From a virus (Duplodnaviria > Heunggongvirae > Uroviricota > Caudoviricetes), in IMG/VR virus record IMGVR_UViG_2534681674_000028, positions 1 to 40,960 of that record: a DNA stretch of 40,960 nucleotides; one strand, 5' to 3'. This document shows positions 6,001 to 12,000 of this stretch, piece by piece; positions within the stretch are counted from its first letter, which is position 1; each line of letters begins with the position of its first letter. The position numbers were made by a program.

Positions 6001-9000
6001 TAACTCTTGTCGAAAAAGCCAGCAAGCTGAAAGACAGGTATTCACCGCCACCAGCGCGTTTACTATACTGACGCGATTTCAGTCATAAAAAACCCGCCAG
6101 GCGGCGGGGTGTAAAAAATCTTCTAACGTCAGGCATAAAACGCCCATCGTTGGAGCAAATTTACCACAGATTCGGGAAAAATCAACAACACTATCGCGTT
6201 ACCCTCTTTAACTGCCGCTCCGCCCATGCCTCTTCAATGTCAAACCGAACCACCAACGTATCGTAAAAGCGTTTCACTGATTTTTTCCACGTATCAAGCG
6301 TGATAGCACTCGTCACTTTGCATATGGCATTAAATGCCTCCGTTGATGGTAGTCTTTCACAGCCACGACCACCACAACGCTGGCAGTCTCTGATAACAGG
6401 CATACCACGTTTTACCGACTCTTCACGATGAATGGCGACACCACGCCCACGGCAATCCTTACAGGCGGTGGAAACCTCACCCTTTCCGCCACACTCCGGA
6501 CAGGCAACTTTTACCACCTCCCTGACTTTTTTCCATTCTTCCCAGTAAGACGGATACACACCTTTCGTACACTTTGCCCATACCGGCGGCTTACCATCCG
6601 GATACTGGATCTTGTTTGTAAAAACCTCGCTTTCAATAAATTTTTTTCCGTGACAGCAGGAGCACTGTTTTTTGCTCGCCGCGCTACGGGCATAATCTTC
6701 AAACGCATACGAAGCCATAATACGCATCACTGCCGGTTTTATTTCTGCCGGGAGTTTTCTTAACGCCGCCACGCGATCACACCGACTGAGTGCATATTCT
6801 GTCAGCAATTCTGTTGCCCGCTCTCTGTCATTCATACTAATGCCCATTTTCCCAAGGAACGCAGAAAACCCCATCTCAGCCCGATTCTGTGTCATGCCCT
6901 GCGCGGCCATCACATCAGTGATACTCAGCGCATCTTTCGACGTTGAGGCCGATGCATCAGTCAGGCCAGGGGATTTTGGGGAGTAGTATTTCGGTAAATC
7001 TTCCAGTTTCATTTTTTGACCTGCCCTTCAAGCATTATGGGGTAAATCTTCACCCCCAGACGTCCACCAGATACTGGCTGACCACGAACGATATTGATTT
7101 CATCAAACTGCTCATCGTCCATTAACACTCCCGCATGCGTCAGCGCATCCAGCGGTGCTTTCAGGATATTGTCCAGGTCGCGACGACGCTTATCCGGTGG
7201 CTCTGCAATCACCTTTATCGCCAGCCTTCCGGACAGGATTAATTTCAGCCGCTGCTGGCGAACAATAAGCGCCACAGCCCGGCGATAACGCTTTCCCTCC
7301 TCCGAGATAAAATATGTGCTGCCACGACGTCGCCAGTAGGTGTTCACCGTCGGCGGGTAAGGTAAAACCAAATCTATGGGCATCAGTCACCTCTTTTACC
7401 CAAGCACGCCTGTTGCGAAGGCGTGATCAAGAAAATGAAAAATTAACTCAACCTGGGAGCCGTACTTTTTCTCAAACTCCAGCGGGTCAGCATGAAGTTC
7501 GTTGTGGTGCTCCCGGCACAACGGTAGTGTGAAAATATCGTGGGCCTTTGTTCCCATTCCGCCCTGCCCATGGCCAATCAGGTGATGCGGATCATCAGCT
7601 GGCTTTCCACAACATGCGCACGGCTGCGTCTTAACCCAGCGTGTGTACTTTTCATTAACCCAGCGACGACGTTTAGGCCGTTTCATGAAAGATTCCGGAG
7701 ACTCCGGATCAACGGCGATGCTTACTACCGTCTTTTCCTGTGGCGTGGTTTGTGGCTGGTGGGCGTGAAGCGGTAGCGCTATGTTTTTTGTGCGCTGCTT
7801 CAGGATGCTGGTGGCGGTCTGTTCTCCCGGTATGATGTCGCTTTCACGGTATACGGAGCGGATTTTTTCCGCACGCAACCCCAGCGAACGACGTAATACC
7901 GCTTCCGGTAGCGCGTCCGCCACCTGATTGCGGACCGCCCACCAGGATAATTCAGCCAGAGATAATTCACGCTCCTGCGTACCGCTTATTGCGTGACGGA
8001 TGATGTCAATCATCCAGGCGGCCAGATTCTGTTGAGCAAGTTGATCCAGTGAATCAGATGTCTGCTCCCGCAGCTGGTTGTCGCAGTGCCAGCACAACAC
8101 CATCGCGCCGGTACCGTAACGGTGAATGACGGTTTCGCTGTGATGATAATCACCGTGTAGCCACTGGCAGGATTTCACGTGACGTAATAACCAGTCAGAC
8201 AGTGCACCAGCGCCACCCGCAGCACGGATCACCCGCTCATCGCTGAAAAATGGCAGTAGTGATTTATCTTCCGCCAGCGGCTGGTGAACGGCAGGTACAA
8301 CCCCGGACGGCAGAGCTCGCATGCTTTTTGGTTCCGGCTCCACCAGTATTCTGCCGTTATGGAATGCTGACATTGATTCACGGCCTGGCTTAACGATAAC
8401 CAGACCGAGTTCCGGTACCAGAACAGGTCGAAGTAATACCCGCACATTACCTCCAGATCCGTTGCTGGAATGTGCGGGACGGACGCGGCGGGCGTTCGGA
8501 ATAAAGGAGCCTGACGTAGATTATCCAGTGACGGTAGTCGAGGCTAAGGGCTTTCTTAAACTCATACCCACGTCTGCGGTAGTTATGAATCAGCCATTCG
8601 GCCTGTTCTTCAGTGCAGGGATCGTGCTGATACCAGTCATATTTGAATGTGTGAGAACACCGCCCTTGCCTGCTGGCAGGGGCGATATCAGAATTGTGAT
8701 GTTTGGTATTGTGCGCCATCGGTTTTCTCTGCTGGCGCAGCAGGTGCCAGTTGTTCAAGCTGGCGTGCGGCAATATTGTCTCTGATTTCTGTTGTCGTCA
8801 ACAGGCAACGTGCTATCATCGAATGGTGTTCTATCCTACTCCGTGAGGTTTACCATGCGTACAACCCAACAATTCAGCATTACATTAACTAACGAAATGG
8901 CTGACATGGTGCGCGCCCGTGTGGCTTCCGGTGCCTATGCTTCAGAAAGCGAGGTCATTCGTGAAGGGCTTCGCGCACTGAATGAGCGCGATAAAGCAAT

Positions 9001-12000
9001 CGAAGCGTGGTTAACGCATTCAGCCGCCCCCTCTCTTGATTCTATCCGCGAAAACCCAAACAACGGACGCTCCATTTCACAGGTTCGCGCCGCGATTCGA
9101 TCCGGGAAGTAATCTGCATGACATATGAAGTCATCATTACTCCTGAGGCCGAAGAACAAATAATCAACCTGCACAGATATATAACGGAGAAAGCAGGGAA
9201 CGTCATTGCTGACAATTTTGCCAATGCGCTTCTTGATTATCTTGATGGGTTTTCTACATTCCCGCATCGGGGCAATAAACGCGATGATATTCGCCAGGGG
9301 ATGCGGGTAACTCATTTCCGCCACAGAACGATTATTGCTTTTGCCGTTGATGGCAGAAAAGTCTTTATTGTCGGTATCTATCATGGTGGGCAAAGTTATG
9401 AAACCGATTTCTTATAAACTTTTACCCACATCATTCCGGTGTTAGAATTAACCGTCCGCCCCCATCTCTTACTGGCGGATTCGTAGGCTATATAAATCAA
9501 AGATCCCGGCTCATGTTTGTGTCGGGATCTTTTTTCGGCGATTTATCCCCAGCGGCAAATCGAATACACCACCAGCGCCACCGCCATCGCAATTCCTGCC
9601 GTTGTGAATGCTTCAGGCCAGGTCATCGTAAAATATCCTCCACGCTTATCAGTCCGTTCCGCTCCAGATAACTCATCGCCTTATCCGGTAATTTGCAGTC
9701 TGGCTTCGCTTTCCTCAGTTGCCAGGTTAACTGCTTTACCAGCATGGTTAACTCATCGGCCAGACGCTGATATCCCACTGGTTTGTATTCATGCAATTTA
9801 CCGGCTGGCTCTGCTGCCAGCGATACCAGTGCGATTTCCAGAACAGCAATATCCATCTTATATGTGCGGATGATGTCATGGTCGATTGTGCCCGGTATGT
9901 GAACCGCCCCGGGTTTCCTGGAGAGTATTTTATCTGTGAACTCAGGCTGCCAGATCATTATTTCCGATGGAAGCATAATAAGCTTTTTCTGCTTCTGCCG
10001 GAGGAATATGGCCCAGCCTTTCCAGCAATCGTCGATTGTTATACCAGTCCACCCACGTTAGTGTGGCCAGTTCCACTTCTGTCCGGTTTTTCCAGCTATT
10101 ACGGTGTATTACCTCCGCTTTGTAAAGACCATTGATGCTCTCAGCCATCGCGTTGTCATACGAGTCGCCAGTACTCCCTGTTGATGCCAGTAATCCGGCT
10201 TCCTTAAGCCGCTGCGTGTAGGCCAGCGATACATACTGAGAACCTTTATCACTGTGATGGATTGTGCCGGACGGCCGACGGGCCCACAACGCCTGCTCCA
10301 GTGCATCCAGCACGAATGTTGTTTCCATGGATGATGAGACCTGCCATCCCACGATGTATCCGGCGAACACATCAATGATGAACGCCACATAAACGAAGCC
10401 CTGCCATGTGCTTACCCAGGTAAAATCAGCCACCCACAACTGGTCTGGACGTTCTGCCACGAACTGACGGTTTACGCGGTCGCATGCGGCAACGGCTTTC
10501 CGGCTGACGGTAGTGCGGACCTTTTTACCCCGGAGAACACCGGCAAGTCCCATAACTGCCATGAGACGTGCCACAGTGCATCTGGCCACTCTGATACCTT
10601 CCCGTAACAACTGACGCCAGACTTTACGCACACCGTATACCTGGTGATTTTCATCGTATACGCGCTGTATCTCTTTCTTCAGCCAGTCATCGTGCTGCGC
10701 ACGGGCACTGCGTTTATCCGGATGATGTCGCTGTTGCTGACAATGGTAATACGTTGACGGGGCAATATGCAGTTCGCTGCATACCGGTCCGACCCCGTAC
10801 TGCTCACGCAGCTTATCCAGCAGTGGCATCATTTTTTTCCAGAGGCGGTCGAACTCCGCCTTCGCAAAATAAGCGGAAGCCTGGCGAAGGATATCGTTAC
10901 TGCGGCGCAGTTCACGATTTTCACGTTCCAGCTCTTTCAGACGCTGACGTTCAGCGCTGGTGAGCCCACCATCACCGCCCCCGGTATCCCGCTCATGCTG
11001 GCGAACCCAGACACGCAGAGTCTCCGGCGTACAGCCAATCTTTGGGGCAATGGAACAAATTGCCGCCCACTGTGAGTCATATTCATCCTGACTTTCCAGA
11101 ACCATACGAATCGCCCGCTGACGGACTTCGGGGGAAAAACGAGTATTTTTAGTCATCCTGTTTACCTCTTTCTCAGGGAGTTTAGTCTCCAGGATTTCCG
11201 GGGCGGTTCAATGCACAGTCTCTGTGCTTCAATAGTCTCCTCTGCGTGAGCTATTAACTGCTCTCTGGTAAAAGTCGTCATGCCGCGTTTCCTTCTTTCT
11301 TATTAACAATTACACCGTCATATATTTCATTAAGGTGCCCTCTCAACTCCATGCGCCTTAATGCAGACAACATGTAATCGCATTCAACCTGCTTATTCCC
11401 AATAAAAGGTTTATCTTCAGGGTTACCCCAACAGCAATTCCCCTTGGGCCACCCATGTACTTTCCGTACGCTTCCGTTAACAACGTGAAGTAATCCCCAG
11501 CCAGGTGGTAAATCCTCAATTGAAATAATTCCCGGCTCACTAATAAAGAATCGCCAGTCGCCCATTCCAAGAGACGGATTTTTACGAAAACGCTTTTTTC
11601 TATCTGCCAACAAGTCAGCACGAGAACATTTCGCCTCTATCAGGCATGATGCTGAATTTCTGAATCCCATAGCATCTGGCTGTTCTCCGGTACTGGTTAC
11701 AGCTATAAAGCGGTCATGAAAACAAACCTTGAACCCGTTGCGCTTAAGGAACTTGTACGCAATCTGACAGAGTTCGCGGTGTGTTAACGCCATATCACTC
11801 TCCTTTGATGCGAATGCCAGCAAGCCAGTTTCTTATGCCGATATATTCAGCGTTCCTGAAACCGCTTTTTACATATATAAATGGCAAGCGAAGATTGTGA
11901 CCATTGACTGCCAGGTAGTCTTTACAACCCTGTTCGGTGAAACAGCAGGTAACGAATTCATCAATATCTTTCACAGCAACGCGCCGCCATTTTTCTGGTG

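Follow-up and report, generated by a model that had tools for sequence, protein, structure and literature searches.

A parDE gene pair in the nin-equivalent region of a lambdoid prophage

The stretch of DNA analysed here (IMG/VR record IMGVR_UViG_2534681674_000028, positions 1 to 40,960; hereafter the window, 40,960 nt in full, to which all coordinates refer) is a lambdoid prophage of attaching/effacing Escherichia coli (enterohaemorrhagic/enteropathogenic, EHEC/EPEC-type). It carries a two-gene toxin–antitoxin (TA) pair of the ParDE type, in which the antitoxin gene parD comes first and its stop codon is separated by 5 nt from the start of the toxin gene parE (Table 1). The pair has the replication genes on one side and the antiterminator gene Q on the other, i.e. 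it is in the equivalent of the nin region, where it is antisense to, and convergent with, the early operon. The flanking genes, from Q to the YdaT-type gene, are all on the minus strand, which bears out the original prediction (made from the sequence alone) of a plus-strand pair within a minus-strand nin-type region.

Both genes can be assigned to the families proposed for them in that prediction. The parD product scores above the curated cut-offs of PF03693 (ParD_antitoxin; 32.1 bits, cut-off 21) and TIGR02606 (ParD family; 53.8 bits, cut-off 46.2), and the parE product, at the coordinates and the length originally given, scores 40.4 bits against PF05016 (ParE_toxin; cut-off 23) and matches the profile from end to end (1-89 of 89). 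In PHROGs the two are antitoxin and toxin in the 'moron' category (1.7e-56 for parD and 2.4e-42 for parE). Each product is 100% identical to a RefSeq protein: WP_001260977.1 (ParD family antitoxin) and WP_000220596.1 (RelE/ParE family toxin). Matches of ParD in the Protein Data Bank (PDB) are 3KXE_C (ParD1), 7B22 (ParD2), 7YCV, 6X0A_a and 8C24_C. The pair is already named in RefSeq, in PHROGs and in the record of phage ArgO145, and is therefore already known.

The start of parD is almost certainly the ATG at 8855, because a Shine-Dalgarno sequence (GAGG, 8845-8848) lies six nt 5' of it, the RefSeq gene of 258 bp has the same start, and alignments with ParD homologues of other bacterial orders begin at residue 1 of the 85-a.a. 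form. The original prediction had placed the start of the antitoxin at 8792; an open reading frame (ORF) can indeed be read from a TTG at that position, but it is an extended ORF only, and 8792-8797 is a -35-like hexamer rather than the start of the gene. We also rejected an antisense ORF of 152 a.a. (8935-9393) as a shadow ORF, for although close relatives have it open, the Yersinia and Izhakiella homologues carry stops in it.

Table 1. Features of the parDE locus and of the surrounding prophage
Feature	Position	Strand	Description
Antiterminator Q	6191-7012	-	
RusA	7009-7383	-	
DUF968	7396-8445	-	
orf90	8447-8719	-	Backbone gene, left edge of the slot, outside the cassette
parDE moron cassette	8772-9541	+	Promoter, parD, parE and terminator; ~770 bp, from homology breakpoints
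Perfect palindrome	8789-8804		CTGTTG-N4-CAACAG, over the -35 hexamer; candidate ParD operator
Sigma-70-like promoter	8792-8819	+	TTGTCG (8792-8797), 16-nt spacer, extended -10 TGcTATCAT (8811-8819)
Degenerate palindrome copy	8824-8839		TGGTGTTCTATCCTAC; second candidate operator, at the predicted transcription start
parD	8855-9112	+	85-a.a. ribbon-helix-helix antitoxin, ATG start, 258 bp
parE	9118-9417	+	99-a.a. ParE-type toxin
Intrinsic terminator of parDE	9499-9535		Hairpin 9499-9532, stem of 12-14 bp, 10-nt loop, U6 on the plus strand
Small ORF, 27 a.a., hydrophobic	9543-9626	-	MTWPEAFTTAGIAMAVALVVYSICRWG; unannotated backbone ORF, right edge of the slot, outside the cassette
IS1203 (IS3 family)	9900-11210	-	1311 bp, 3-bp ATG target duplication, outside the cassette
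DnaC-like replication gene	15900-16646	-	
YdaT-type immunity/cII function	17807-18232	-	
RecE-like exonuclease	21327-23789	+	
Integrase	24080-25210	+	

Toxin class

The profile searches that the original prediction had named as its test went in its favour, with a ParE fold for the 99-a.a. protein. An exhaustive HMMER search with the toxin collected 1136 representative clusters at E ≤ 1e-3. A toxin profile of 89 members, when compared with the PDB, retrieved ten ParE entries (E from 3e-12, for 6X0A, to 7e-4; among them 6X0A, 8C24, 5CEG, 7YCS, 3KXE, 6XRW, 5CW7, 5CZF and 7R5A), and E. coli RelE was not recovered from the PDB with this profile at E ≤ 10. The AlphaFold2 model of the toxin, based on the family alignment (mean predicted local distance difference test score, pLDDT, 89.9; predicted template modelling score, pTM, 0.79), has a long two-helix hairpin (residues 9-46) and a three-stranded sheet. 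When this model was compared with the PDB by Foldseek, ranks 1-23 were all ParE toxins (template modelling score, TM, 0.72-0.83; root-mean-square deviation 1.4-2.6 Å), with RelE, YoeB, YafQ and HigB below them (TM 0.4-0.65). By its sequence and its predicted structure, the toxin belongs with the ParE members of the superfamily, being nearer to characterised, gyrase-inhibiting ParE toxins than to RelE.

Conservation, selection and distribution

Among 5426 complete E. coli genomes, over which all genome counts were taken, parE is found in 328 and parD in 365; both are chromosomal in every case, and no parDE was found on a plasmid in this collection. The ratio of nonsynonymous to synonymous divergence (dN/dS) is 0.06-0.18 for both genes, in comparisons with IMG/VR relatives and Salmonella, indicating purifying selection. 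The order parD-parE is kept in 17 out of 18 loci of GTDB species representatives (from Salmonella, Yersinia, Izhakiella, Pantoea, Paraburkholderia, Polynucleobacter, Desulfovibrio, Dyella and a metagenome-assembled genome of the Beijerinckiaceae) and in 78 out of 79 viral loci, the exception being one truncated locus. Because of these dN/dS values and the synteny over 17 of the 18 species loci, we conclude that the two genes are real and paired, and not chance ORFs.

The two genes differ in their divergence: within the same locus pairs (L056, L061, L068, L074 and L083), synonymous divergence is 3-10 times higher in parE than in parD (e.g. 0.369 for parE versus 0.033 for parD in L068), and the antitoxin protein is better conserved than the toxin (95% versus 80% in Salmonella). 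This pattern suggests recombination between parD and parE, or homogenisation of parD together with the promoter. In two species, Yersinia similis (L093, 5001-5284) and Dyella nitratireducens (L097, 5001-5293), the parE homologue aligns in two frames, with an apparent frameshift, and parD is intact; these loci may represent decay of the toxin that leaves the antitoxin behind.

Cassette limits and mobility

The limits of the cassette were taken from comparison with other prophages, and agree with the cassette-like insertion of the original prediction. On the left, homology breaks off at 8759-8772 in loci with a different left neighbour; on the right, it breaks off at 9415-9417 or 9626-9629 in IMG/VR loci, and the DNA that is common to parDE-free prophages begins at 9542. 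Over the 79 IMG/VR loci, promoter, parD, parE and terminator form a constant core, and the right-hand neighbour is variable. The stretch 9542-9622, just outside, is found in ~1360 complete E. coli genomes, four times the count for parE. The same cassette is found in the early-left region of the Shiga toxin (Stx) phage ArgO145, adjoining an antirepressor gene, and antirepressor-type neighbours of parDE are also seen in L074-L077, in Y. similis (AntA, ERF) and in Izhakiella (ORF6N, KilA-N). With a promoter at one end, a terminator at the other and several phage contexts, the cassette has the textbook layout of a moron.

A third component was considered as well. The 114-a.a. phage gene to the right accompanies the cassette into ArgO145, and its product has no Pfam match; it was rejected, because only ~26 of the 79 viral loci have it complete and the others lack it or match it in part. 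Between this gene and the cassette lies the small ORF of 27 a.a., whose start overlaps the stop of the upstream 114-a.a. gene (ATGA), so that the two are translationally coupled. The peptide is conserved in L101 and L102, with conservative changes, and no feature is annotated for it in the ~1360 of 5426 genomes.

In parDE-free prophages (O157:H7 FRIK804, WP3-W18-CRE-03; loci L101, 1551-2500, and L102, 1970-2500) the slot between the small ORF and orf90/DUF968, which corresponds to 8772-9541 of the window, is occupied by a hok/sok locus of the hokD type, accompanied in L101 by a gene of the YgiW/YdeI family. The hok locus is found at query coverage of at least 80% in 2517 E. coli genomes. The slot is an apparent hot spot for alternative addiction modules.

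Promoter-like site, candidate operators and terminator

The promoter-like site 5' of parD has nine out of 12 consensus matches and the TG of an extended -10 box. It is retained in all 21 distinct upstream variants, including those with unrelated DNA further upstream, in keeping with the promoter of its own that the pair had been predicted to have. The perfect palindrome over the -35 hexamer is also retained in 21 out of 21 variants despite diverged flanks, with at most one base of the outer arms changed; it is found in Salmonella and, in part, in Yersinia and Izhakiella, and is a candidate operator specific to this lineage of Enterobacterales.

Another palindrome, GTAGGATT[AT]AATCCTAC, is near-perfect and family-wide: it is found 15-22 nt 5' of parD in 13 out of 17 loci (those of Burkholderiales, Enterobacterales, Desulfovibrio and Dyella; L084-L097), in which the surrounding DNA is unrelated. 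In these 13 loci the left arm, TAGGAT, is at the same time a -10 hexamer, for which there is a plausible -35 box 17 nt further 5'. In the lineage of E. coli, Salmonella, Yersinia and Izhakiella the right half (ATCCTAC, 8833-8839) is intact and the left half (8824-8829) is degenerate, which puts the E. coli copy at the predicted transcription start (near 8826). That this element has been conserved while the non-coding DNA around it is unrelated speaks well, if indirectly, for an operator, and the family-wide palindrome is probably the ancestral ParD operator of the subfamily. The features observed that would suit autoregulation are the promoter-like site, the palindrome at the -35 box and the family palindrome at the predicted start.

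The bidirectional terminator of the original prediction holds in one direction: on the plus strand there is a strong hairpin with a U6 tail, whereas the tail that it has on the minus strand, UUUGAUUUAU, is U-rich but weaker, and termination in that direction is only plausible. The hairpin was missed by a consensus terminator scanner because its loop exceeds 8 nt; it was recovered by folding (z = -3.0 and -2.6 versus shuffles).

The DNA between parE and the terminator has some features of its own. Just 3' of the parE stop there is a promoter-like sequence on the plus strand (TTTACC-16-TGtTAGAAT, 9421-9448), a match at background frequency. The interval 9421-9535 on this strand comprises two hairpins (9454-9480 and 9499-9532), an AU-rich linker and the U6 tail, a layout like that of a small RNA of ~80 nt. 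An Rfam scan of 8300-10000 gave nothing credible (the sole match was to a plant microRNA family, 21.7 bits versus a gathering score of 64).

Orphan ParD of Stx2a phages

A parD gene without parE is found in 37 E. coli genomes and in many Stx2a phages (e.g. L003, 2584-3562 of LC727840, with parD at 2584-2841). The orphan ParD is identical to the ParD of the window at 74 out of 85 residues: the first 47 residues are identical, and the toxin-binding C-terminal half has diverged. The orphan gene retains the same promoter and palindromes, and the homology of L003 to the window stops 14 nt into parE. On its 3' side are an ORF for a lipoprotein-like protein of 93 a.a. and then a HigA-like helix-turn-helix gene, an arrangement that has been reported as orphan ParD/HigA antitoxins of unknown role (PMC12502783).

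One could picture a dedicated exchange point in lambdoid nin regions, lying between orf90 and the 27-a.a. ORF, at which hok/sok and parDE are interchangeable, together with an arms race involving orphan ParD and swapping of parE alleles. We regard this picture as speculative and quite unlikely. If it were true, the orphan ParD could be an anti-addiction (anti-TA) factor directed against resident parDE prophages, or a silencer of their promoter, and the synonymous excess in parE would reflect toxin alleles being swapped behind a homogenised antitoxin and operator.

Comparison with known systems

The nearest characterised ParDE pairs are those of Mesorhizobium, Caulobacter, Mycobacterium tuberculosis, Pseudomonas aeruginosa and Vibrio cholerae, with toxin identities of 15-25%. 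The best matches in both sequence and structure are ParD1-ParE1 of Caulobacter crescentus (3KXE) and the pair of Mesorhizobium opportunistum (5CEG, 6X0A), which share the ribbon-helix-helix ParD family (TIGR02606/PF03693) and the ParE fold with the window pair and are likewise bicistronic with the antitoxin first; however, their toxins are only ~18-25% identical to ours, and they are chromosomal modules of alphaproteobacteria, not phage cargo. The archetypal gyrase-inhibiting addiction module, ParDE of RK2/RP4, has the same two-gene architecture and family names, and is likened to the window pair by architecture, not by sequence. It differs in being plasmid-borne, and it is the source of the gyrase-poisoning, post-segregational-killing mechanism proposed below (references cited in PMC10899753).

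Another ParE-fold toxin (TM ~0.79) belongs to PaaR2-PaaA2-ParE2 of CP-933P in E. coli O157:H7 (5CW7, 5CZE, 5CZF), which is also in a lambdoid prophage of a pathogenic E. coli with a YdaT-type immunity region (PMC9986795). That system, however, has three components, with an unrelated antitoxin (PaaA2) and a separate regulator, and a toxin identity of ~18-19%. PfiT/PfiA of the filamentous prophage Pf4 (9W3A) and PrpT/PrpA of Pseudoalteromonas (7YCS) are close structural matches that combine ParE-fold toxins with ribbon-helix-helix-type antitoxins on mobile elements, but they are only 15-16% identical and belong to other hosts and elements. ParE_SO/CopA_SO of the Shewanella prophage CP4So is a further ParE-fold toxin with a ribbon-helix-helix-type antitoxin on a mobile element. 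The roles reported for this group are phage production, plasmid replication and prophage stabilisation. The hokD-type hok/sok locus, a type I system, is likewise a small addiction-type module and takes the same slot as parDE; it differs in having a membrane-peptide toxin and an antisense-RNA antitoxin, and in following the orientation of the phage operon. Related TA cargo is relBE-hokD of the K-12 Qin prophage.

Proposed role and alternatives

The gene identities, the fold, the integrity of both genes, purifying selection, gene order, the cassette limits and mobility between phage contexts are directly supported by the results above, and it is very probable that the pair is a functional ParDE-type TA. 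We think it likely that it is a self-contained type II TA operon, carried as a phage moron, whose gyrase-poisoning toxin penalises the loss of the prophage segment. Knowledge of the family suggests how toxicity, neutralisation, autoregulation, the gyrase target and an addiction phenotype would fit together. In a lysogen, parDE would be expressed from its own promoter, independently of the early operon of the phage. ParD would form a ribbon-helix-helix dimer, the C-terminal half of which binds and neutralises ParE, and, alone or with ParE, would act on the palindromes at the -35 box and at the transcription start to repress the promoter of parDE. If the cassette were lost, or its expression stopped, labile ParD would be degraded by proteolysis, and the ParE thus freed would poison DNA gyrase, leading to DNA breaks, to SOS induction and to cells that stop growing or die. 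Overall, loss of the prophage segment would carry a penalty (addiction or stabilisation). Gyrase-poisoning TAs are known to mediate post-segregational killing and to induce SOS (PMC10899753), and in the main Pfam subclusters ParE toxins inhibit gyrase (PMC11980606). By this analogy gyrase is, on balance, the expected target of the toxin, and we give about even chances to addiction being the main biological role. As for induction of the prophage, early antiterminated transcription would cross parDE in antisense.

Several points weigh against this interpretation. The selective value of addiction is uncertain, because loss is a far rarer event for a chromosomal prophage than for a plasmid. Not every ParE homologue has been shown to act on gyrase, and ParE2 of E. 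coli O157 is reportedly a possible exception. The promoter scan as a whole is at background (three sites found versus 2.3 expected in shuffles), the family-wide palindrome has a degenerate left arm in the window, and our literature searches found no paper on this specific parDE pair. PF05016 also takes in genuine RelE mRNases, including E. coli K-12 RelE, together with an mRNase subcluster (Gerdes 2025, PMC11980606), so the Pfam match by itself does not fix the target of the toxin. It is this breadth of the family, along with a RefSeq name that says merely 'RelE/ParE family', which would allow the toxin to be a RelE-like, ribosome-dependent mRNase, the module still being a type II TA. We hold that to be improbable: only ParE toxins stand at the top of the profile and fold searches, E. 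coli RelE being absent from the former at E ≤ 10, the partner is of the ParD family (TIGR02606) and not RelB, and the toxin model has the long N-terminal helical hairpin of the ParE structures that it matches.

The other alternatives concern what the module is for. Abortive infection or superinfection exclusion, in which a second, infecting phage would stop host transcription or break down ParD, so that freed ParE arrests the cell and aborts the infection, and sister lysogens are protected, would suit a moron that is expressed in lysogeny from prophages, the usual site of exclusion genes, and other TA families are known from the literature as defence systems. We nevertheless think it unlikely: PADLOC gave no match at E ≤ 0.01 for ParD, ParE or their neighbours, the literature searches found no demonstration of phage defence by a ParDE, type II antitoxins have been argued to have half-lives longer than a lytic cycle, and CcdB, a gyrase poison, has been shown to induce lambdoid prophages and not to abort them (both PMC10899753). 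The module might instead chiefly regulate the prophage, with ParD or ParD-ParE serving as a transcription factor for phage genes or modulating induction or excision, as reported for PfiT/PfiA of Pf4. Regulation of a prophage by a TA is reportedly exemplified by ParE_SO/CopA_SO of CP4So. Here the close structural match to PfiT (9W3A), the identical DNA-binding half of the orphan ParD in Stx2a phages and the far stronger conservation of parD than of parE, synonymous sites included, would all fit, but the mobility of the cassette, which is found in unrelated phage regions, speaks against its being tied to one particular phage circuit, and we doubt that regulation is its chief role. An inert remnant, with ORFs intact by chance and no current function, is a most improbable reading; the prophage does look damaged, with IS1203 inside its early operon, on the stretch that separates the replication genes from Q, and parE is frameshifted in some homologues of other species (L093, L097), but in the window neither ORF is shortened and each is identical to an allele of many genomes, the dN/dS values are low, as given above, and the promoter-like site, the Shine-Dalgarno sequence and the terminator are all intact.

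The significance of the pair is modest: it is a typical type II TA of prophages in Shiga-toxigenic and attaching/effacing E. coli, and may help to retain prophage segments. The cassette limits, the candidate operators, the hok/sok alternative and the orphan ParD make it a clean natural system for the roles of prophage TAs (addiction, exclusion and targets of anti-TA factors).

Prophage context

Further minus-strand genes to the left of the cassette are those for a DNA methylase, a SASA esterase, a holin and a lysozyme; to the right there are, besides those in Table 1, two Ead/Ea22 genes, DUF977 and DUF1627. The insertion sequence (IS) IS1203 splits the 114-a.a. nin gene into 9623-9899 and 11211-11281, and a new ATG inside the element gives a fusion ORF of 117 a.a. 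(9623-9976). As IS1203 interrupts the early operon upstream of Q, the prophage may be crippled, with late gene expression out of reach.

Past the integrase (24000-36000) there are many IS elements (of the IS2, IS3, IS600 and IS1203 types) and the type III effector gene nleA, from which it follows that the host is an attaching/effacing E. coli. For 6000-14000 of the window, no complete E. coli genome in the collection reaches a coverage of at least 80%. For 24000-36000, the nearest complete genome is that of strain 90-3040, with 88% of the region covered at 98.5% identity.

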